Program-made: the position numbers and the translations under genes
The notes under the pieces: generated by a model
Database searches by the model: none
What the model saw: the letters and a program-made list of their open reading frames with translations, nothing else
Told to the model about the DNA's origin: nothing
Origin: a bacterium
GTDB lineage: Bacteria > Hinthialibacterota > Hinthialibacteria > Hinthialibacterales > Hinthialibacteraceae
Assembly (NCBI GenBank): GCA_016125385.1
Contig: WGLV01000039.1
Location: forward strand, 7,343 to 71,342
Reading direction: 5' to 3'
DNA length: 64,000 nt
Part shown: positions 9,841-52,953 of the stretch, piece by piece
Layout: every line of letters begins with the position of its first letter
How positions within the stretch are numbered: the first letter of the stretch is position 1

Positions 9841-10986
9841 TCAGACAACCGTGCGCATGTCTCGAATCGCCACCGGCGCGCCGTTTTTCTCCGCCGATTC
9901 ATACGTGCGGGTCGAGGCTTCAACCCCCTGTGCGCCCGAAGTCAGGTCGGCGGGGTTTTCTTCATCGCAGATGAGGTGTTTGAGAAATTTGTCCCACTGA
10001 TAGCGGAACGCGTTCTCCGGCGTGTCGGGCGCCTCAATCAGCTCCCAACCGTCATCGAACTCGATTCGGCTGGCGGTGTCCGGGTCCCAGGCGATCTTGG
10101 GAGTGCGCTCGTTGGTGATGAAGTAGCACCGGTCGAGATACGCTTCCGCCGCGCCCTTCGTACCCTGAACCTTGATCTCAAGCAATCCGCGTTTGCGCGG
10201 CCGGCGGCACCATGACGACGCCGAGTCGCAGATCGCGCCCTGTTCGCAGACGAAGCGCGCGTATACCGAATCCTCCGCCGTGGTCGGAACCGGCTGACCG
10301 CCGCGCGTGCGCTGTTTGATATGCAGACCGGTCAACGCGGAGACCTCAACCGGTCGCCCCACGATCGATTCAAGTACGTAATCCCAGTGGGCGACCATGT
10401 CGTAGACGATGCCGCCGCCTTCGGCCTTGTCGGAGTTCCAGTCGGGCCGCGTTCCATCATCGGGATGAACCAGATACCCGAATTCGAGCAGTACGTGATA
10501 GACCTCGCCGATCATTCCTGAATGGATGACGTGTTGCAACGCTTTCAGGCCGGGTAGATAGCGTTTGTCTTGAACCACGCCGCCCTTCACGCCCTGGGCG
10601 TTGGCTTTTTTCGCGAGATCGATGGCTTCTTCCACCGTGAGGGTGATCGGCTTTTCGGAAAAGATATTCATTCCCGCGTCGATGGCCTGGCTGATGCCGG
10701 CGTAATGCACCTTGGTGATCGCGCCTTCGAAATACACGCGGAACGGGCTTTTGTCTTCAAACGCCGCGCTGAGGTCGGTGCCGCAGGGCAGCCCGTATTC
10801 ATCAGCGAGGGGTTTGAGTTTGGCCATATCACGGCCGATCAGAAACGGCTTGGGCATAATCACGTCGCCCCTGGCGGTTTTCAGCCCGCCTTCCTTGATG
10901 AAGTGCATCAGCGAGCGGTCCAGATGCTGGCGGCGCGCCATGCGTCCGGTGACGCCGCGCATATAGATGGGAACTTCGATAATCAT
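9841..10986 (-). CDS. Gfo/Idh/MocA-family NAD(P)-dependent oxidoreductase (cytoplasmic; divergent N-terminal Rossmann motif).
   Basis: The central and C-terminal regions show GISQAIDAGMNIFSEKPI (the EKP motif) and a typical Gfo C-terminal alpha/beta dimerisation domain. The ATG at 10986 has an AAAGGA RBS. The track's upstream extension to 11040 would overlap the cupin gene by 37 nt. Confidence 0.8.
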   Translation of the reverse strand: MIIEVPIYMRGVTGRMARRQHLDRSLMHFIKEGGLKTARGDVIMPKPFLIGRDMAKLKPLADEYGLPCGTDLSAAFEDKSPFRVYFEGAITKVHYAGISQAIDAGMNIFSEKPITLTVEEAIDLAKKANAQGVKGGVVQDKRYLPGLKALQHVIHSGMIGEVYHVLLEFGYLVHPDDGTRPDWNSDKAEGGGIVYDMVAHWDYVLESIVGRPVEVSALTGLHIKQRTRGGQPVPTTAEDSVYARFVCEQGAICDSASSWCRRPRKRGLLEIKVQGTKGAAEAYLDRCYFITNERTPKIAWDPDTASRIEFDDGWELIEAPDTPENAFRYQWDKFLKHLICDEENPADLTSGAQGVEASTRTYESAEKNGAPVAIRDMRTVV

Positions 10987-11003
10987 GATGCGTCCTTTCG
11001 TGA

Positions 11004-11471
11004 TTACGCCGAGGGGCTGTTTTTGGTGCTTTCCGGGCATTGCCGGTACGCATCACCGGGCAGCGGAGGCGTTGTGACGCCCGCTTTGGGCAATGTTCCA
11101 TCGAGTTCCTGACGCCAGTGATCGACGTCGCCGTCGCCTTCATAGATGTACAGAAACACGGCCTTTTCGGGCCCGCGGTTAGTCAGCTGGTGAAACTTGC
11201 CGGATGGAATATGCACCGCCTGGCCCTTGCGCAGCCGAACCGTGCCTTCGTCTTCCATCGCCAGCTCGATATCGTCGCCCTCAAGCATGACGTAGACTTC
11301 ATTCTGTTCGTGGTTATGCCACGGAACCTGCCCGCCGTTCGCGTCCAGTTCGATCCAACCGGTGCGGAAACCGACGTTCTCAAACAGGCCGGGGCCGGTG
11401 AATCCGCGACCCAGCCGGTTGGCGGGGAAGCGCTTGCCGGGCATGTCGCGCACGTCCAACACGTGAATCAT
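11004..11471 (-). CDS. Cupin-domain protein (RmlC-like cupin).
   Basis: VPWHNHEQNEVYVMLEGDDIELAMED...GQAVHIPSGKFHQLTN contains the two-His cupin motifs G(X)5HXH...G(X)5PXG...H. A strong AAGGAG RBS precedes the ATG. Confidence 0.8.
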   Translation of the reverse strand: MIHVLDVRDMPGKRFPANRLGRGFTGPGLFENVGFRTGWIELDANGGQVPWHNHEQNEVYVMLEGDDIELAMEDEGTVRLRKGQAVHIPSGKFHQLTNRGPEKAVFLYIYEGDGDVDHWRQELDGTLPKAGVTTPPLPGDAYRQCPESTKNSPSA

Positions 11472-18634: not shown

Positions 18635-19375
18635 TTAATGAACGCCGCGCATGGTTTCCATCGTGATGCGATGGTCGCGCGAGGCGTTGATGATCCGCAT
18701 GAAGCACACCACCCGGTTGTTCGACGTATAAAAAATCCGGTCCATCAATAACGCCGATTCGTCTCGCGGGCGCTGCAATAACTCCGCCTCGCGGTCGTCC
18801 AGAGTCGTGACTTCAAACGAATCCGCCGTGCGGATGATGGGGACTCCATTCTTCTTGGTGATGATGTCGAGGATTGAGTTGCCCCGCAGGTCTTCGAGGG
18901 GTACGCCGGGGCATAGGTCGTGCGACACGTAGGCGGTCTCCAGCGTCACAGGCGTTCCTTCAATAAAACGCCGCCGCAACACTTTAAACACCTGGTGTCC
19001 GGTTTCGTGATTGAACAGCTCCGTCAGATCCGACGGAGAGATGGTGAGCATCTTCTGGACGACTTCGGTCTCCCAGGGGACGCCGAAATCGAGGATGCTT
19101 TCGGTGATATGGGTCGAGAGCCACACACCCGCGTTGGACGGAGGTTTTTCGACGAAGGTTCCCTTGCCGGGAATCTTGCGGATATACCCCTTCCGCGCCA
19201 GGTCTTGCATGGCGGAGCGAACGACGGCTTTGCTGACGGCCTGTTGAGTACAGAGCTGATCTTCCGTGGGCAGTTGCGCGCCTACCGCAAGTTCCCCGCT
19301 TTCAATTGCCTGCAATAAAATGTCAACCAGCTGTAAGTAAAGCTTGCGTGGATTATCACGGTCAACTTGTTTCAT
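18635..19375 (-). CDS. GntR-family transcriptional regulator, HutC/UTRA subfamily.
   Basis: An N-terminal winged HTH (PRKLYLQLVDILLQAIESGELAVGAQLPTEDQLCTQQAVSKAVVRSAMQDLARKGYIRKIPGKGTFV) is followed by a UTRA effector-binding domain. Confidence 0.85.
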   Translation of the reverse strand: MKQVDRDNPRKLYLQLVDILLQAIESGELAVGAQLPTEDQLCTQQAVSKAVVRSAMQDLARKGYIRKIPGKGTFVEKPPSNAGVWLSTHITESILDFGVPWETEVVQKMLTISPSDLTELFNHETGHQVFKVLRRRFIEGTPVTLETAYVSHDLCPGVPLEDLRGNSILDIITKKNGVPIIRTADSFEVTTLDDREAELLQRPRDESALLMDRIFYTSNNRVVCFMRIINASRDHRITMETMRGVH

Positions 19376-19621: not shown

Positions 19622-20506
19622 ATGGCCGATTCGATTAACCGTAGACAAGCCCTTGGGGCTATCGCTGTTGGCGGCGCCGCGCTTAGCGCGGTTTCCAGCG
19701 TTTCCGCCGTGGAAGGAGGAGGCAAATTGAACGGACGCATCAAACAGTCGGTTTCACGCTGGTGTTATGGCGGTACGTGGCCCGACTTCAAGGAATTCTG
19801 CAAAGCCTGCGCTGACATCGGCCTTCAGGGCGTCGACCTGGTGGGGGAAGACGAAGCGAAAGTCATGAAGGAATTCGGTCTGGTTCCCTCCATGTTTACC
19901 CCGGGCGCGGGCTCGATTCCCGACGCGTGCAATGACCCCAAACTTCATGACAAACTGCTGAAGCAGTTTGAAGAAAACATCCCGAAAGCGGCCAGATACG
20001 GCGCGCCCAACGTCATCACTTTTTCAGGAAACCGCAAGGGAATGAACGATTATGACGGCATGCGGCATTGCGCCGATATCATCAATAAAGCCGTTAAAAT
20101 CGCTGAAAACGAAGGCGTTGTGATCTGTATGGAACTGCTCAACAGCAAGGTAAACCATAAAGATTATATGTGTGATCATACCGATTGGGGCGTCACTCTC
20201 GTCAAAATGGTGAACCACCCCAATTTTAAACTGTTGAACGACCTCTACCACATGCAGATCATGGAAGGCGACATTATCCGTAATATTCAGGATCATCACG
20301 CCTGCTTCAATCATTACCACACCGGCGGCGTTCCCGGCCGAAACGATCTCGACGAGACGCAGGAGATGTATTATCCCGCCATCATGCGCGCCATCGTTGA
20401 CACCGGGTACACCGGCTTCGTCGCACATGAGTTCGTCCCTCGCGCCCAGGACAAAGAGGGGGCCTTCAAAGCGCTCCAGCAGGCTGTAACTCTTTGCGAC
20501 GTGTGA
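19622..20506 (+). CDS. Tat-exported sugar phosphate isomerase/epimerase (xylose-isomerase-like TIM barrel).
   Basis: Twin-arginine signal (INRRQALGAIAVGGAALSAVSSVSA) followed by a TIM-barrel AP-endonuclease-2/xylose-isomerase-like fold with metal ligands (E in CMELLN, H in HYHTGG, E in AHEFVP). A GGGAGGA RBS precedes it. Confidence 0.85.
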   Translation: MADSINRRQALGAIAVGGAALSAVSSVSAVEGGGKLNGRIKQSVSRWCYGGTWPDFKEFCKACADIGLQGVDLVGEDEAKVMKEFGLVPSMFTPGAGSIPDACNDPKLHDKLLKQFEENIPKAARYGAPNVITFSGNRKGMNDYDGMRHCADIINKAVKIAENEGVVICMELLNSKVNHKDYMCDHTDWGVTLVKMVNHPNFKLLNDLYHMQIMEGDIIRNIQDHHACFNHYHTGGVPGRNDLDETQEMYYPAIMRAIVDTGYTGFVAHEFVPRAQDKEGAFKALQQAVTLCDV

Positions 20507-21284: not shown

Positions 21285-21304
21285 GAATTGAATAACACAG
21301 GCGA

Positions 21305-21329
21305 AGGGGCGGGTCTCAGACCCGCCCCT
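21305..21329. terminator. Strong hairpin between convergent genes: an 11-bp perfect GC-rich stem with a 3-nt loop.
   Basis: AGGGGCGGGTCtcaGACCCGCCCCT. It has no clear U-tract on either side, so intrinsic-terminator function is plausible but not classic. Confidence 0.45.
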
Positions 21330-21368
21330 CGTGGTTCGATATACGGAGAGTTGGTGTAATCCGGCTGA

Positions 21369-22190
21369 TTACATTCCCTGCCAGCCTGAAATGGGCAGCG
21401 GATGATCTTCCGGCTCATGGCAGGAATTACAATCCATCTTGCTCAACACGTTGTTCTGGCCGGTCGAGCCGTGGCAGGTATTGCAGGTCGCGATGACGGC
21501 GGCCGGGCCGTTCTCCGGAACGAATGCGTTCTGGATCTGGGCGTTAATCAGTTCAGCCGCCTTGCTGGCGACGTCGGCTACCAGGCGGGCGCAGCGTTCT
21601 TTCCGTTCATTGCTCGTCACGCCGAGATTAGAGGCTTCACACCACTTGCTCACCGACGCGTGGCAGAGCGGTGAATTCGACACGCTCGTGGTCGTTGTTT
21701 CTTTCCCATCGGGGACATAGATGGGGAGCGCGGTTGTGGAGTACCAGGCCATCAGTTCGTCGATCAACGGATTCGCCGTACTGCTGGGCAACACCAGGTT
21801 GATCGCGGCGGCCGCTCCATTCAGCGTCCCGCACAACGAGCCCCAACTCACGACGCCGCCAGCGCCGTACCGCATCATATCGAGAGGAATCAGCGTAAAC
21901 GGATAGCCCTGCGTCTCGGCCAGCTGACCAACCAGCCCCTTGAACGCGCCGTAACAGCAGCCGCCTTGAGAATAAGCGGTGTAACCCATTTCCGCCGCCA
22001 TGTTCGGATCGAGTTCCGCGCAGGTCCAAGGCCATGCCGGTGCGGTGGGGTCGGCCTGGGCGGAAGCTTTTTCCGGGCTCAGCCCCGTCGCGGCGATCCC
22101 GGTGGCTGCGGCCGCTCCACCCACGATTTTGAGAAATGATCGCCTTCCTTCGAGTGTAGCAGTCATCGTCTCTTTTTTCTGTTCATCCAT
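21369..22190 (-). CDS. Tat-signal protein with an N-terminal C_GCAxxG_C_C-family (putative redox-active) domain fused to a C-terminal diheme c-type cytochrome module.
   Basis: The twin-arginine signal is GRRSFLKIVGGAAAATGIAATG. The C_GCAxxG_C_C-like motifs are WTCAE...AYSQGGCCYGAF...YGAGGVVSWGSLCGTLNGAAAAI. Two CxxCH heme-c motifs (CNTCHG and CNSCHE) sit in the last 45 residues. Confidence 0.75.
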   Translation of the reverse strand: MDEQKKETMTATLEGRRSFLKIVGGAAAATGIAATGLSPEKASAQADPTAPAWPWTCAELDPNMAAEMGYTAYSQGGCCYGAFKGLVGQLAETQGYPFTLIPLDMMRYGAGGVVSWGSLCGTLNGAAAAINLVLPSSTANPLIDELMAWYSTTALPIYVPDGKETTTTSVSNSPLCHASVSKWCEASNLGVTSNERKERCARLVADVASKAAELINAQIQNAFVPENGPAAVIATCNTCHGSTGQNNVLSKMDCNSCHEPEDHPLPISGWQGM

Positions 22191-22261
22191 GGTGCATCCT
22201 CCAGAGGGGTTTGAGTTCCGCTAACGGAGGCGATTTCTCCGGTAACGAATATATGCTTTTA

Positions 22262-22285: not shown

Positions 22286-22530
22286 ATATGATCTTATCCT
22301 CATTTTGGTTAGATTACATTTTAGCCATATTCTTGATTGAATGTCTACGCATAAATGAAAAAAATGAGATTATTATGCGATTTTTTGAGAGGCGCCGCTT
22401 TGGTAGACGATTTGTCTTGCGCGGAAATATCGCCATAAATCATGTTTTTTCAGGTGGTTTCAATTTTCGTAAAATAGCATCGGGGGGGAGGGAGCGCCGC
22501 TTCACGCTGGGTCATGAAGAAGCTGAATAA

Positions 22531-22562
22531 CAAAACCGGCGTTTCGAAAACCGAAACGCCGG
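22531..22562 (-). terminator. Rho-independent terminator of the Tat-Gfo oxidoreductase gene.
   Basis: caaaaCCGGCGTTTCGaaaacCGAAACGCCGG: an 11-bp stem with a 5-nt loop. On the minus strand it is followed by a UUUUG tail, ~28 nt after the stop at 22590. Confidence 0.5.
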
Positions 22563-22589
22563 TCGTGTGAATCTCAACCAGAAAGGGAA

Positions 22590-23948
22590 TCAGATTTTGT
22601 GCATGGTCAGTTTCCACGGAGCGCGGTAATCACGCTGGAACTGTGGGCAGGCCATCGCGGCGGGTTCGTTGGTGATGATCTCGCGATCGGCGTCCCATTG
22701 CAGCTTGAGGCCGGTGCGAAACGCGATGTTGGCGAGATGGCACAACGTGGTGGTCTTGTGCATCGACTCGATATCGGAACGGGGTTTCTGGCGCGTCTTG
22801 AGACAGTCGATGAAATTCGCCTGGTGGGATTCCTTGATTTCGTTGATGGTTTCAGGCTTTTTATCGCCGAGCCGGTCGCCTTCCGGCGATACCTTCCATG
22901 AGCCGCGGTCGACGAACAACTGGCCGTTGCGGCCGATCCATTCCGAACCGTGACCTGATTCATACCCGTCCAGTCCGCGCGCATTGCCCCATCGAACTTC
23001 CCAGTGCATCACCCAGTCCTTGAACTTGAAGGTAGCGATCTGGGTGTCGGGCGTGTCGCGTCCGTCGCGGATAAAGAACAGGCCGCCGGTGGAAGAGACC
23101 TCGACCGGGTCCCAGTCTCCCATCGCCAGGCAGACGATATCCATCATATGGACGCCCCAGTCGGCGGTCTGGCCGCCGGCGAAATCAAACCACCAGCGCC
23201 AGTTCCAGTGGAAGCGATTCTCCTGAAATAGCGAGAAGGGCGCCGGTCCCAGCCAGAAGTCATAGTCGACGCCTTCGGGCGGCTGGCTGGGATAGGCGAA
23301 GCCCATGCCGTCGCTGTTGCCCAGCAGCCAGGCGCGGCAGACGGTGATCTGGCCCAGCGCGCCCGAACGAACGAAGTCGATGGCGTCCTGAAAATGCTGA
23401 ACGCTGCGCTGCCATGAGCCGATCTGTACCACGCGGTCGAATTTTTTGGCGGCGTTCACCATCGCGCGGCCTTCGACGATGTTGTGAGAGATCGGTTTTT
23501 CACAATAGATGTCGAGGCCCGCCTCGCAGGCCGCGATGAAGATCAGCGCGTGCCAGTGGTCGGGCGTGGCGATCGAGACGGCGTCGAGGTCTTTGTTCTC
23601 CAGCAGTTTGCGGAAGTCTTTATGACCGGTCAGTTGCTGGTTGTATTCAGTTTCGAACAGATTTTTAAATTTTTCGACCTCGCGCGCGTCGACGTCGGCT
23701 ACGTCGGTGAAGCGCACGCCTTCAACCTTGGCCAACTCACGGGCGTTGTGAGTTCCCATGCCGTGGACGCCGATGGCGCCAATGTTTACGCGATCATTGG
23801 CGCCGAGCACGCTTGGTGGAAACGGGCCGGCGGCCAGCGCGGCCATGCCCGCCGAGGCGGCGGCTTTGGAAAACGTGCGCCGGGAGACCGGGTTCGCGGC
23901 GGATGACGCGTTCTGACGTTTGCGGGATTCCTGATTCATAAAAGCCAT
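22590..23948 (-). CDS. Tat-exported Gfo/Idh/MocA-family oxidoreductase (periplasmic sugar dehydrogenase-like; compare Zymomonas GFOR).
   Basis: The twin-arginine signal is SRRTFSKAAASAGMAALAAGPF. The Rossmann motif is NIGAIGVHGMGTHNA. The EKP motif is DIYCEKPISHN. The C-terminal Gfo dimerisation domain is present. Start is either 23948 (ATG) or 23939; the second has better AAGGAG spacing. Confidence 0.85.
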   Translation of the reverse strand: MAFMNQESRKRQNASSAANPVSRRTFSKAAASAGMAALAAGPFPPSVLGANDRVNIGAIGVHGMGTHNARELAKVEGVRFTDVADVDAREVEKFKNLFETEYNQQLTGHKDFRKLLENKDLDAVSIATPDHWHALIFIAACEAGLDIYCEKPISHNIVEGRAMVNAAKKFDRVVQIGSWQRSVQHFQDAIDFVRSGALGQITVCRAWLLGNSDGMGFAYPSQPPEGVDYDFWLGPAPFSLFQENRFHWNWRWWFDFAGGQTADWGVHMMDIVCLAMGDWDPVEVSSTGGLFFIRDGRDTPDTQIATFKFKDWVMHWEVRWGNARGLDGYESGHGSEWIGRNGQLFVDRGSWKVSPEGDRLGDKKPETINEIKESHQANFIDCLKTRQKPRSDIESMHKTTTLCHLANIAFRTGLKLQWDADREIITNEPAAMACPQFQRDYRAPWKLTMHKI

Positions 23949-24171: not shown

Positions 24172-24939
24172 GTGAGTTCATCGATCTTGCTCGACCGCCA
24201 ATTGTCGCGGCCGTGGGTGTTTATGGACGCGGGAGACACCTTCGTTTACGGATACCCGACTTTTTACGAGGCGGTGCGCGACTGCTGGGTCGCGCTCGAC
24301 GACGAGGTTGACGACGCCTCGATCCGCAGGGCGGCGGCGCGTTTTTTCGCCGAAAATCCCCGCACCGCACTGACCTCGCAGGAAAACTTTCAGACTTACT
24401 TCCAATCGCTTTACCGATCGGTGTTGCGTGAACTGAACTTTCCCGGCGACGTGGAGGAATTCGTTGAATTTCTATGGGCGGAGTGGGAGAGCGGCCGCCG
24501 GCTGCGCCTGTTTGACGACGCGCGCGGCGCCTTGGAGATGCTTCATCGCGCGCGCTTCAAACTGGGAATCGTCAGTAACTGGGACCTGTCGTTTGAAGGC
24601 GTGATGGAGCGGTTGGGCGTGTTGAAGTATTTCGACGTCGCGGTCTGTTCATGCCGCGTCGGCGCCGCCAAGCCCGATCCCCGCATCTTTGAATACGCGC
24701 TCGAACAGGCGGGCGCCAGCCCCAGCCAGGCTTGGTTTATTGGAGATCAGGCCGAGTACGATACCGATCCCGCCGGGGCGCTCGGCATGAAGACCGTGCT
24801 GGTCGATTATTACGGAAAAAGCAAACCGGATGAGCGCGGCCGGGCCGACGTCTTCGCGCCAAGCATCAGTCTGGCGGCGGCGTGGATTCTGCAGGACGAA
24901 CTGGGGGATTTTACGAGCGGCGCTGCTGCTGAGACATGA
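24172..24939 (+). CDS. HAD-superfamily hydrolase.
   Basis: Motif I is VFMDAGDTFVYG (DxGDT). Motif II is LGIVSNWD. Motif IV is FIGDQAEYDTDPAGA. Its 3' end overlaps the convergent coiled-coil gene by ~29 nt. Confidence 0.8.
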   Translation: MSSSILLDRQLSRPWVFMDAGDTFVYGYPTFYEAVRDCWVALDDEVDDASIRRAAARFFAENPRTALTSQENFQTYFQSLYRSVLRELNFPGDVEEFVEFLWAEWESGRRLRLFDDARGALEMLHRARFKLGIVSNWDLSFEGVMERLGVLKYFDVAVCSCRVGAAKPDPRIFEYALEQAGASPSQAWFIGDQAEYDTDPAGALGMKTVLVDYYGKSKPDERGRADVFAPSISLAAAWILQDELGDFTSGAAAET

Positions 24940-25981
24940 TCGCCATGCGCAGGCGCTTCTTTTCTTCGACGGTTTCTTCCGATTCGGGCTGGGGGGCGTC
25001 TTCCCGGGGTTTTGGGGGAGCATCCTGAGCGGGCTGTTCCGACTTCACGCCAAGCTGAACCTCCATCTGGTCAATGACCGACGTGGTTTCTTTTTCTTTC
25101 ATATTCAGGTAAGCGATTTCACGCTGGATGGCGTTGAGTTCGCTCTGGTTCTCGTTGAACTGCGCGTTGCGTTGGCCCAGCTGTTGCTCGTAAACGGTGG
25201 TTTTCTCTTTGAGACTGCGGTCGATCAATGCTTTCAGGTTATCGATCTTTTTGCGCAGGTCCTGACTTTCTTCCTGCAGAACGCCCTCGCGTTGAGCGGC
25301 CAGGTAACGATGCCAGCTCAGAATGGTCTTTTTGTGATGTTGAAGATCGAGCCTGACATGGTGGCCTTTATTGGAGTCTCCCTGCAGGCACTTGCTGATC
25401 CTGACGTATTTCGGTTTCAGGTTGGCGAGTTCGCGGGCGAGCGGCAGCGCGTCCTGCGTCTTGCCTTGCCGCTGCATATCGAGCAAGGCGCCCATTTTCG
25501 ACTCAAATTCATCCATGACGGGATTTTTTTTGCGGGTATCCGCCATGCGCGCTTCAACGTCGCGCAATTCACCGAGCGAATAGGTCAACGAACGCGCGAC
25601 TCGCACCAGCTGGGGTTCGGTGCGGTTGATTTCACCGATCGGAATGAGACCGCTGTCGCGGTATTTATCGAGGGTGCCGCGCGCCAGAGTCAGCAGGACG
25701 TTCAACTCCATCGAGAGAATGTCTGAATCGCCGCGCAGGGCGAGCTGGATGCTGCGCTTCAGGTTTTGACTCTGGTTTTCTTCGGCTTCGCCCAGATACG
25801 ATTCAGCCTCTTCGCTGGTCATCCAGCGCACCATACCGTTATCGACCACGCGAACAAGCTCCCGTGGCGATTTGCGGTTCTGCTGAGCGTATTTGTCGAC
25901 GATGTCGTCGAGCAACGTCTGCAGCCGGTCAACCGAAACGTTTTCAGGCGATGACCCGAATAAGTCTTCAAAAGAAATCAT
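24911..25981 (-). CDS. Uncharacterised coiled-coil protein, paralog 1: a globular N-domain, a long heptad-repeat region and a basic C-terminal tail.
   Basis: MISFEDLFG...VSVDRLQTLLDDIVDKY...ELVRVVDNGMVRWMTSEEAESYL...KKNPVMDEFESKMGALLDMQRQGKTQDALPLARELANLKPKY, then ~150 aa rich in K/E/Q/L. It shares conserved blocks with the downstream paralog. Confidence 0.7.
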   Translation of the reverse strand: MISFEDLFGSSPENVSVDRLQTLLDDIVDKYAQQNRKSPRELVRVVDNGMVRWMTSEEAESYLGEAEENQSQNLKRSIQLALRGDSDILSMELNVLLTLARGTLDKYRDSGLIPIGEINRTEPQLVRVARSLTYSLGELRDVEARMADTRKKNPVMDEFESKMGALLDMQRQGKTQDALPLARELANLKPKYVRISKCLQGDSNKGHHVRLDLQHHKKTILSWHRYLAAQREGVLQEESQDLRKKIDNLKALIDRSLKEKTTVYEQQLGQRNAQFNENQSELNAIQREIAYLNMKEKETTSVIDQMEVQLGVKSEQPAQDAPPKPREDAPQPESEETVEEKKRLRMAIMSQQQRRS

Positions 25982-26071: not shown

Positions 26072-27193
26072 CTAGCGTTTAAAGTGCATCCCGTGCCGAG
26101 GCTTCGCGGACTGGCCGTCATCGGGCGCCGCGCTGCTCTCCGGCTTTTTGGGGTTGCTCATGCGTTGCTGGTGCTTGACGTCGTCCATGCTTACTTTGAT
26201 GTCCGTCTCGCCCAGCACGTTTTCCGCGATGTGTGAAATCACTGCGTCCAGTTCGCGTTCCTGCCGCTGAATAACAGCGGTCTCTTTTTCGAGCGAATGA
26301 AGTTCGACGACTTTTTCCTTGATCTCCTGCTCGGCGCCTTCCAGATCATAGGTGCGCAGTTTGCTGATTTCGTCGTTGGCTGAATCCATGCCGCGTTCTT
26401 CCGCTTCGGCCAACTTGGATTTCACCTCGGTCAGGTTGGTCTTCAGGTCATTCAATTCAAGTTGAAGCGCGTCAATTCGTGTTGAACAAAGATCGCCCTG
26501 CGTATTCAGAATGCGTTTTTTGGTTTTCTGCAGATTGAGGCGGTGATATTGAATGGTGCGGATATCCGGCTCAATGGCGCGCGTGAGCAGAAGGTAATTC
26601 TTTTTTTTGCCGGCCAGCTCTCGCGCGAGTTTCAGCGCCTCATCCATTTGACCGTTGGATTTGGCGTTTAAAAACCGCCCCATCATGTCTTCGTATTCAT
26701 CCAGCAGCGGGTTGCGCCGCCGTTTTTCGTGTAAAATCGCTTCGCTCTCCGCGGTTTGCGCGACGCCGTCGCTGATTTCGCGCTGACGCCGGGCAAGGCT
26801 GGGTTCAATCCGGGCGAAATCCTCCGGGCTGATGGCGTCGAGTTGTTTGTACTTGCCCAAGGTATACGTCGCCAGCGCGAGCAGAATTTCCAACTCCTGC
26901 CGAATGATCCGCAGATCGGCTTTCAATGCGGATTGTACGTCATGATGTAATGAGTCGCCTTCTTCGCCGGTATCGAGAAAGTTGACGGCCTGATCCTGCG
27001 TCATCCAGACTACTTTGCCTCGATGCACGACGCGGACCAGTTGATTCGGGTTGATCTGGACACGATCGGCGATCGCGGCCATGATCTTATCGAGAAACAC
27101 TTCGACCCGGTCGAGAGAAAATGGCTGGTCTTCTCCACCTAACAGGTCGGTGAATGATATCCCAGGTATGCTGTTCAGGTCGAAGTCATTCAT
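26072..27193 (-). CDS. Uncharacterised coiled-coil protein, paralog 2 (tandem duplicate of 24911..25981).
   Basis: Blocks shared with paralog 1: FTDLLGG / FEDLFG; SLDRVEVFLDKI / SVDRLQTLLDDI; QLVRVVHRGKVVWMTQDQAVNFL; RRNPLLDEYEDMMGRFLNAKSNGQMDEALKLARELAGKKKNY. A long coiled coil follows (LQLELNDLKTNLTEVKSKLAEAEERG...). Confidence 0.7.
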   Translation of the reverse strand: MNDFDLNSIPGISFTDLLGGEDQPFSLDRVEVFLDKIMAAIADRVQINPNQLVRVVHRGKVVWMTQDQAVNFLDTGEEGDSLHHDVQSALKADLRIIRQELEILLALATYTLGKYKQLDAISPEDFARIEPSLARRQREISDGVAQTAESEAILHEKRRRNPLLDEYEDMMGRFLNAKSNGQMDEALKLARELAGKKKNYLLLTRAIEPDIRTIQYHRLNLQKTKKRILNTQGDLCSTRIDALQLELNDLKTNLTEVKSKLAEAEERGMDSANDEISKLRTYDLEGAEQEIKEKVVELHSLEKETAVIQRQERELDAVISHIAENVLGETDIKVSMDDVKHQQRMSNPKKPESSAAPDDGQSAKPRHGMHFKR

Positions 27194-51846: not shown

Positions 51847-52410
51847 CTAAAATCCGCCGGAATGATGCGTCCATGCCCGGGTCGCCGTATTCGGATTGGC
51901 TTCAGGCAAAATCTTCTCAATCGCTTTCGCCAGTTTTTTCGGATCCTGCGATCCGATTAACAGGTACTTCCCGTCTTCATAATGCAGCCTCACGCCCTGA
52001 TCGCCGGATACGTTATACGCCATGCCATGCGGACCGTATTGAATTCCCCAGCCTCCGTATTCCTGAATGGGCCGGTAGGTACAGGCTTCGACTCGCGTCA
52101 CGTTGTCTAGAGAAATTCTGATTTTCCACCAGTGAAAGGGAATCCACTGGATGTACAGGCCATCGCGCCGGACGGTGGTATTCATGTGCATGAGGAAGAG
52201 CGCAATCCCGCCGATCGCCTCGCCGAACAGACACCAGCCAATGGAATGGAGAGGTTGCGTCCAACTGACCGGTTCGGGGTGATTCTGTATCGCGAATGTG
52301 ACCAGAATGATAATGGGGCCGATGAGAAAGACGCTGATAATAAATAACCAGAACCAGAATTTTCGCATGTACTGCGATTCATGGAATAGAACTGTGTCTG
52401 AAGCGCTCAT
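51847..52410 (-). CDS. Membrane-anchored protein with two N-terminal TM helices and a C-terminal bacterial PH-like (bPH/DUF304-type) domain; paralog A.
   Basis: LFHESQYMRKFWFWLFIISVFLIGP...RRDGLYIQWIPF...RVEACTYRPIQEYGGWGIQYGPHGMAYNVSGDQGVRLHYEDGKYLLIGSQDPKKLAKAIEKI. It shares the full architecture with the adjacent paralog. Confidence 0.6.
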   Translation of the reverse strand: MSASDTVLFHESQYMRKFWFWLFIISVFLIGPIIILVTFAIQNHPEPVSWTQPLHSIGWCLFGEAIGGIALFLMHMNTTVRRDGLYIQWIPFHWWKIRISLDNVTRVEACTYRPIQEYGGWGIQYGPHGMAYNVSGDQGVRLHYEDGKYLLIGSQDPKKLAKAIEKILPEANPNTATRAWTHHSGGF

Positions 52411-52440: not shown

Positions 52441-52953
52441 TCATGCTTCAGTGATCGACTGAATGGCTTTCTGCAATTTCTTCGCATCCTGAGAGCCGAT
52501 TAGAATTTTCTTCCCGTCCTCATACTCCAGCTGGACGCCTTCGTTGCCGGAGACGTTATAGGCGGTTCCATTGCGAAACGTGAATCGGATTCCCCAGCCG
52601 CCGTATTCCCAGATCGGGCTGTAGGTACGCGCTTCACAACGCGTCAGCCGATGGGTGGAAATCTCTTTCGTTGAAAACTGGAGAGGAAAGAACTGGATGT
52701 AGAGGCCGTCTTTGCGCACCTCGGTGGTCAACTTCATCGTCAGCATCAACAGAATTACGATGAGCCCTATCCCGCCGGTGATCGCTAAATTGAACAATAA
52801 CTCGTTCATCGAACGGCTTTCGGGGGCTTTGTTGATAAAATCGAAGATCGAGCCGCCCAACGCGCTTCCAAAAGAGATTGTGATAATCAGCCACAACCAC
52901 CATTGTCTGAAATACTGAACTTCCCTGAACAGCGGTTTCTCCGATGATGACAT
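52441..52953 (-). CDS. Membrane-anchored PH-like domain protein; paralog B (tandem duplicate).
   Basis: LFREVQYFRQWWLWLIITISF...RKDGLYIQFFPL...RCEARTYSPIWEYGGWGIRFTFRNGTAYNVSGNEGVQLEYEDGKKILIGSQDAKKLQKAIQSI. It is ~45% identical to paralog A across the TM-plus-PH domains. Confidence 0.6.
   Translation of the reverse strand: MSSSEKPLFREVQYFRQWWLWLIITISFGSALGGSIFDFINKAPESRSMNELLFNLAITGGIGLIVILLMLTMKLTTEVRKDGLYIQFFPLQFSTKEISTHRLTRCEARTYSPIWEYGGWGIRFTFRNGTAYNVSGNEGVQLEYEDGKKILIGSQDAKKLQKAIQSITEA

Follow-up and report, generated by a model that had tools for sequence, protein, structure and literature searches.

Locus and family membership

The gene described here lies on the minus strand of a 64-kb stretch of contig WGLV01000039.1, hereafter referred to as the window, which is the whole length of DNA that was analysed. 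It encodes a precursor in which a predicted twin-arginine translocation (Tat) signal, a C_GCAxxG_C_C domain and two CxxCH haem-binding motifs follow one another, and the identical NCBI entry is named 'MAG: hypothetical protein GC154_15615 [bacterium]' (MAG, metagenome-assembled genome). A previous sequence-only reading, in which the strand was not stated, had recognised these three elements and regarded their combination as an unusual fusion. The product was identified here as a homologue of split-Soret cytochrome c (Ssc), and what appeared odd in it is the hallmark of a family with a solved structure. It is considered highly probable that the gene encodes a periplasmic Ssc-family protein in a bacterium of Candidatus Hinthialibacterota, matured by the mechanism proposed below. 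The features of the gene and its product are as follows.

21369..22190, minus: coding sequence of the 273-residue split-Soret cytochrome c homologue (precursor); ATG start, from the list of open reading frames (ORFs)
22059..22190, minus: predicted Tat signal peptide, residues 1-44; from the motif, the hydrophobic region (h-region) and the AxA site
22128-22148, minus: GRRSFLK in the n-region, residues 15-21; sequence reading
21516..22055, minus: all-helical N-terminal domain (N-domain; about residues 46-225), corresponding to the C_GCAxxG_C_C or Ssc iron-centre domain; from PF09719, invariant columns and the predicted local distance difference test (pLDDT)
21957-21959, minus: invariant C78; alignments
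21831-21833, minus: invariant C120; alignments
21663-21665, minus: invariant C176; alignments
21660-21662, minus: invariant H177; alignments
21591-21593, minus: invariant C200; alignments
21471..21485, minus: haem-binding motif 1, CNTCH, residues 236-240; sequence reading, aligned with CGECH of 1H21
21417..21431, minus: haem-binding motif 2, CNSCH, residues 254-258; sequence reading, aligned with CTPCH of 1H21
21402..21404, minus: H263, tail histidine and candidate distal haem ligand; family conservation

All three elements named by the sequence-only reading were recovered. The RRSFLK motif is present, the Pfam model C_GCAxxG_C_C (PF09719) was matched over residues 89-213 with 45.8 bits against a cutoff of 27 bits (E=7e-12), and both CxxCH motifs fall inside the last 38 of the 273 residues. 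The full-length identity of the protein emerged from a phmmer search against the PDB, which retrieved 1H21, the Ssc of Desulfovibrio desulfuricans ATCC 27774, with E=1.3e-46, in an end-to-end match pairing query residues 41-259 with chain residues 5-234 and aligning both CxxCH motifs. By BLASTP the two proteins share 38.6% identity over 228 residues, and NCBIfam NF047622, 'split-Soret cytochrome c', was matched over residues 16-260 with E=5e-63. Since the similarity of the query to Ssc ranks 9th of 268 family sequences and its identity exceeds the family median of 36.6%, the window protein is a typical member of the family and no outlier. An AlphaFold model built with 38 homologues reached a mean pLDDT of 81, with values above 90 over most of the helical N-domain and of 44-74 in the haem tail, as expected without haem. 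When this model was compared with the PDB by Foldseek, the sole significant match was 1h21_A (E=1e-14, template modelling scores of 0.65/0.74, root-mean-square deviation 3.7 A), so that the window protein is predicted to share the Ssc fold, namely a helical N-domain followed by a haem tail.

The likeness to the Desulfovibrio protein (PDB 1H21; NF047622; Ddes_2150) thus extends over the full length (E=1e-46 to 3e-52); both C-terminal CxxCH motifs, the conserved histidine of the LCH motif and the four non-haem cysteines are common to the two proteins. However, the query has additional cysteines at C57, a residue that 1% of the family shares, and at C79, which forms a CC doublet present in 55%, and it has no counterparts of Ssc Cys29, His22 and His106. 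The hosts differ as well, the one being a sulfate reducer and the other a member of a polysaccharide-degrading candidate phylum. The family, its structure and its Tat signal were already known, and what is new is a divergent member in Hinthialibacterota.

The extent of the family was estimated from several searches. A word-indexed search retrieved 278 homologues at E<=1e-5, an exhaustive search of representatives retrieved 687 clusters at E<=1e-3, of which 480 remained at E<=1e-10 and 173 at E<=1e-30, and the homologues from a scan of genome contigs showed 34-44% identity. The sample used for the counts below comprises 267 sequences, namely the 120 closest homologues and 147 further representatives. 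Judged from these sequences, the combination of Tat signal, C_GCAxxG_C_C domain and dihaem tail is a trait of a large family, and the description of the protein as an unusual fusion could not be maintained. The same holds for the idea that it offers a fresh functional clue to C_GCAxxG_C_C proteins, since NF047622 exists and members with a predicted Tat signal and two haem sites have already been published. Proteins to which the literature ascribes this architecture, in which a C_GCAxxG_C_C domain goes with a predicted twin-arginine signal and a pair of haem motifs, are Shewanella oneidensis SO0939, Geoglobus ahangari GAH_00301, Pyrodictium delaneyi Pyrde_1256 and the archaeal 'cluster 21' (Archaeoglobales, Pyrolobus). 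Twin-arginine signals were predicted for the archaeal split-Soret cytochromes (PMC4429474), SO0939 appears as 'split-soret diheme cytochrome c' in a refined list of Tat substrates (PMC3623810), and GAH_00301, with its C_GCAxxG_C_C annotation and two haem motifs, is counted among the cytochromes of G. ahangari (PMC4600277). In contrast, the haem-less C_GCAxxG_C_C proteins (PF09719 / TIGR01909, such as the DVU_1555 family) have the four-cysteine signature in common with the query and no dihaem tail, and the query scored far under the cutoffs of both the DVU_1555 model (16.8 vs 103 bits) and TIGR01909 (15.8 vs 47.4 bits).

Haem tail, iron-centre domain and export

The sequence-only reading had allowed that the CxxCH motifs might be fortuitous and lost in orthologues. 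They were instead found to be retained. Of the 120 closest homologues, 119 have exactly two CxxCH, and two are present in 111 of the 147 further representatives, giving 230/267 sampled members overall. In the 38-sequence alignment all six residues of the haem motifs (C236, C239, H240, C254, C257 and H258) are invariant, and M252, just before motif 2, is 96% conserved. The spacing between the motifs is mostly 18-22 residues in the family, the 18 of the query being among the commonest. Additionally, a histidine follows within 15 residues of the second CxxCH in 229 of the 230 dihaem members, corresponding to H263 in the query; together with H177, H240 and H258 this makes four conserved histidines, which would therefore suffice for two bis-His haems. 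The Pfam cytochrome models stayed below threshold on the window protein, Cytochrome_C7 (PF14522) reaching 16.6 bits against a cutoff of 24.8, and by sequence the haem tail falls outside the c3/c7 domain family. This failure of the Pfam models would also be expected if both motifs were fortuitous and the protein a plain haem-less C_GCAxxG_C_C protein. However, the motifs are invariant, their spacing is constrained and in alignment they match the haem sites of a cytochrome with a known crystal structure, leaving that explanation, which the conservation data already refute, a negligible probability. A single CxxCH is carried by 16 of the 147 further representatives.

In the N-domain, C78, C120, C176 and C200 make up the C...GCAxxG...C...C signature and align with Cys44, Cys86, Cys147 and Cys171 of the Ssc chain, respectively. 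The title of the 1H21 entry reads 'A novel iron centre...', and we infer from these alignments that the four cysteines are candidate ligands of a non-haem iron centre. Abreu and colleagues reportedly assigned the centre of Ssc in 2003 as a [2Fe-2S] cluster on four cysteines.

As regards export, the signal peptide displays the sequence properties of a Tat substrate, namely an S/T-R-R-x-F-L-K-type motif, a moderately hydrophobic h-region and an AxA site. The h-region, IVGGAAAATGIAATGL, is rich in Gly, Ala and Thr and reaches a maximum 13-residue Kyte-Doolittle mean of 1.7, and the c-region contains ASA at residues 42-44 followed by Q45, the mature N-terminus of 1H21 aligning near query residue 37. 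R16 and R17 are conserved in at least 90% of the 38-sequence alignment, and an RR pair lies inside the first 60 residues of 96 of the 120 closest homologues. Across the sampled family, 210/267 members have RR and 21/267 have RK or KR in an otherwise canonical context (231/267 in total). Most of the other 36/267 begin inside the h-region or the mature domain, and three carry RR followed by x-W; most of these 36 look truncated or mis-started. The family signal logo reads [S/T]-R-R-x-F-L-[K/G/A]-x-A-G, and its core is moderately hydrophobic. Furthermore, in two independent assemblies (L025:6001-8146 and L026:206-2351) tatA, tatB/E and tatC come directly after, and in the same orientation as, the gene of a relative with 52% identity to the query, P0019. 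Five shorter relatives of 205-219 residues (P0208, P0209, P0218, P0256 and P0257) stop right after the N-domain and have no CxxCH, and they have kept the RR signal, which suggests that the requirement for Tat belongs to the N-domain. If these short sequences are complete, the haem tail appears to be a module gained or lost across relatives. On the basis of this conservation, the Tat signal of the family is judged genuine and its twin-arginine pair not incidental, which answers the doubt voiced by the sequence-only reading that the N-terminus might be a Sec (general secretion) signal with a chance RR.

These features can be arranged into a maturation pathway. Folding of the helical N-domain around a non-haem iron centre, held by C78, C120, C176 and C200, would take place in the cytoplasm, and because the N-domain would carry a cytoplasmically inserted cofactor, the folded protein would leave through Tat, with cleavage of the signal after ASA44. 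The C-terminal tail of about 40 residues, presumably unstructured without haem, would gain its two haems c after export from a periplasmic Ccm or Ccs system. Each haem would be bis-His ligated, with H240 and H258 as proximal and H177 and H263 as candidate distal ligands, and, as in 1H21, two subunits would form a dimer whose core is a stack of four haems. The mature protein could then shuttle electrons at low potential between its iron centre and its haems. Parallel haem stacking in Ssc has been cited (PMC5928083, PMC8840924). Between the two export scenarios left by the sequence-only reading, cytoplasmic loading followed by haem attachment after export is thus the better supported, and this order is proposed as the most likely mechanism. 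The underlying mechanistic question is not specific to the window locus.

Tat-exported iron-sulphur (Fe-S) proteins that work with separate Sec-exported cytochromes c offer a parallel, an example being PetA, the Rieske protein in the bc1 complex. The logic proposed here is the same, with Fe-S insertion in the cytoplasm preceding Tat export (PMC3623810). Unlike such proteins, the Ssc family would combine an Fe-S module and c-type haem sites on one polypeptide, which would therefore depend on Tat as well as on haem ligation in the periplasm. The family is thus a natural case of a polypeptide that would travel through Tat on account of its iron centre and yet be a substrate for periplasmic haem c ligation, and members occur in tractable hosts such as Shewanella, with SO0939, and Desulfovibrio.

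Several points weigh against the proposed identity and pathway. The score of the query against NF047622, 213 bits, does not reach the equivalog cutoff of 400 bits; the protein is therefore a homologue, but the same function as in Desulfovibrio is not assured. Desulfovibrio alaskensis G20 has two Ssc genes whose mutants show no fitness phenotype (PMC4215793). Moreover, no ccm, ccs or tat gene was found among the 43 ORFs of the 64-kb window, which was the scope of the search within this genome, and the generic signal models remained below their cutoffs (Pfam TAT_signal, 14.1 vs 22.7 bits; TIGR01409, 9.9 vs 16.7 bits).

The last two observations, on the tat genes and the signal models, are also what would be expected if the RR were incidental and Sec exported the protein unfolded, like ordinary c-type cytochromes, which are normally Sec substrates, the N-domain cofactor being then inserted in the periplasm or absent. 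Such a route is nevertheless very unlikely, considering that the [S/T]RRxFL[K] consensus is conserved across phyla, that the h-region is merely moderately hydrophobic, that tatABC lies directly downstream of P0019, that haem-less relatives retain the RR signal and that independent TatP-based predictions have been published (PMC4429474, PMC3623810). Folding in the cytoplasm followed by Tat export and haem attachment is accordingly retained as the preferred pathway. As to c-type cytochrome maturation, the type MAG of the phylum encodes cytochrome c oxidase and NrfAH (PMC9324843), and it therefore exists in the lineage.

Among the signals of the family, a variant was observed in long members of about 372 residues (P0051, P0064, P0078, P0104, P0106, P0110, P0120 and others), which carry FlgD_ig and type IX secretion system (T9SS) sorting (Por_Secre_tail) domains C-terminal to the dihaem tail. 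At the N-terminus they have [S/T]-R-K-x-F-L, a form of the twin-arginine motif in which lysine replaces an arginine, and a Tat-type signal and a T9SS sorting domain on one c-type cytochrome would imply display at the cell surface.

Gene neighbourhoods of relatives

The gene neighbourhoods of relatives provide a possible first functional lead for Ssc. At five of the nine closest-clade loci (P0003, P0005, P0006, P0013 and P0016), the Ssc-like gene belongs to a same-strand island with several of the following components each: an ArsR-type HTH_5 regulator, an ArsP_1 permease, Thioredoxin_3, DGC, a periplasmic-type thioredoxin and DsbD/CcdA. Some islands add LMWPc (ArsC-like), SBF (Acr3-like), methyltransferase or RND efflux genes, or a multihaem/cytochrome b protein, and an unknown protein of about 160 residues may also be present. 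The close-relative loci with an ArsP_1 or ars-like link are L017, L018, L021, L022, L027, L028 and L029, and the genome loci with an ArsP_1 link are L008, L010, L011, L012, L013 and L015, an ArsP_1 permease being nearby in 6 of 15 more distant genome loci. Orientation differs between lineages, with ArsP_1, Thioredoxin_3 and DsbD_2 grouped upstream of the Ssc gene on its own strand in Prolixibacteraceae and Marinilabiliaceae, and ArsP_1 lying on the opposite strand in Desulfobacterota. Overall, the ars-like link was seen at 11 of about 24 loci. The association of ArsP, CcdA and thioredoxin, as well as redox-active-disulfide-protein-2, in ars operons has been published, without mention of a cytochrome c (PMC2963123). 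Around the window copy, the ars-like thiol-redox island is wholly absent.

Two interpretations of these islands were considered. It may be that the Ssc family, rather than being a general electron shuttle, is the periplasmic redox part of ArsR-regulated, ars-like thiol-redox islands, acting on an extracytoplasmic metalloid or thiol, with the solitary Hinthialibacterota copy derived and decoupled, and that it is at the same time a single-chain test case for sequential maturation; this broader proposal is tentative and, as a whole, rather doubtful. It may alternatively be that the N-domain is a thiol/disulfide redox module, or a binder of another metal or metalloid, without Fe-S, its four cysteines cycling and being fed by CcdA and thioredoxin. 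The position of relatives in islands with Thioredoxin_3, thioredoxin, DsbD-CcdA, ArsP_1 and ArsR would fit such a module, as would the fact that some C_GCAxxG_C_C members are selenoproteins (by the name of TIGR01909; PMC9312934), which is typical of thiol-type redox chemistry. On the other hand, the homologous domain of 1H21 holds an iron centre according to the PDB title, the conserved Tat signal would argue for a cofactor inserted in the cytoplasm, and the window copy has no thiol-redox neighbours. A thiol module without iron is therefore regarded as unlikely, and a non-haem iron centre on the four cysteines remains the preferred assignment.

At two of the close-relative loci, multihaem cytochromes were observed upstream of the Ssc-like gene. 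In L021:1721-4462 the multihaem cytochrome carries a fused membrane domain of the cytochrome b561 type and is separated from the Ssc-like gene by an outer-membrane Alginate_exp protein, and in L028:1-1899 it directly adjoins the Ssc-like gene. These neighbours echo the Ssc of Pyrodictium, as Pyrde_1256 is tied to a cytochrome b subunit (PMC8105010), an arrangement without counterpart at the window gene, and suggest that the partner is quinol-linked in some lineages. In terms of regulation, the Ssc gene of D. desulfuricans is mildly repressed by nitric oxide (PMC5701242). The FG-GAP protein encoded beside the nearest homologue (L023) has no counterpart in the window.

Transcription signals, neighbouring genes and host

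The window locus itself matters little beyond the correction of its 'hypothetical protein' annotation to split-Soret cytochrome c family protein. The signals read around the gene are listed below.

22197..22202, minus: Shine-Dalgarno GGAGGA, 6 nt 5' of the ATG; sequence reading
22318..22347, minus: sigma-70-like promoter candidate TAGACA-18-TAAAAT, 10/12 consensus matches, ~130 nt 5' of the start codon
21303..21331, minus: GC-rich hairpin GGGGCGGGUC...GACCCGCCCC 3' of the stop codon; minimum free energy -29.9 kcal/mol, z = -3.0
22534..22564, minus: terminator-like hairpin with a 14 bp stem and then a T-rich tail, 3' of the upstream Gfo/Idh/MocA gene

The promoter candidate was identified by consensus match alone, the number of matches in the region not exceeding shuffle expectation. 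The hairpin at 21303..21331 is a probable bidirectional terminator common to the cytochrome gene and to the dCMP deaminase gene that converges with it. Because hairpins lie on both sides and a promoter-like site is found about 130 nt upstream, the cytochrome gene appears to be a monocistronic, standalone unit without a linked partner gene. An operon with the upstream Gfo/Idh/MocA gene, which has its own Tat signal, was rejected in view of the terminator hairpin, the 400-nt gap and the separate promoter-like site. The named neighbours are the following.

22590-23948, minus: Gfo/Idh/MocA oxidoreductase with the predicted Tat signal SRRTFSKAAA, upstream neighbour
19622-20506, plus: xylose-isomerase-like TIM barrel with the predicted Tat signal NRRQALGAI
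18635-19375: GntR regulator
9841-11040: second Gfo/Idh/MocA gene

The other neighbours include, besides the convergent dCMP deaminase gene, a HAD hydrolase. The two flanking enzymes, both with RR signals and named domains and with the GntR regulator nearby, could suggest that the cytochrome is a periplasmic electron acceptor for Tat-exported sugar-oxidising enzymes (22590-23948, 19622-20506), since a periplasmic Gfo/Idh/MocA enzyme with a tightly bound nicotinamide cofactor would need a re-oxidant. However, the terminator-like hairpin and the 400-nt gap separate the two genes, Gfo/Idh/MocA genes are abundant in the genome, two of them in the window alone, and such a gene was found near just one of nine close-relative loci, where it is 4 kb off and on the other strand; there is consequently only a slim chance that this proposal is correct. 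Conserved synteny with the Gfo/Idh/MocA gene was likewise rejected, as the adjacency does not recur among the nine close-relative loci.

Some minor observations were made elsewhere in the window. Two adjacent minus-strand ORFs of about 360 residues (24911-25981 and 26072-27193) have alike N-termini and no Pfam match and may be paralogues, the first of them sharing 29 nt with the 3' end of the HAD hydrolase gene, which converges on it. Beside a Band_7/SPFH protein, two small membrane-protein ORFs lie in tandem on the minus strand (51847-52410, 187 residues, and 52441-52953, 170 residues), with similar N-termini, …FHESQYMRKFWFWLF… and …FREVQYFRQWWLWLI…, and no Pfam match for the 187-residue ORF.

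The window, with a GC content of 57%, encodes LptD, KdtA, LpxK, FliW, a GH127 glycoside hydrolase, aconitase, Lon and SecA; LptD, KdtA and LpxK indicate that the host is a diderm, which also carries many glycan-degrading genes. Its SecA shares 78% identity with the SecA of Candidatus Hinthialibacter antarcticus, placing the host in Candidatus Hinthialibacterota (=OLB16), and some close SecA relatives are labelled Omnitrophica.

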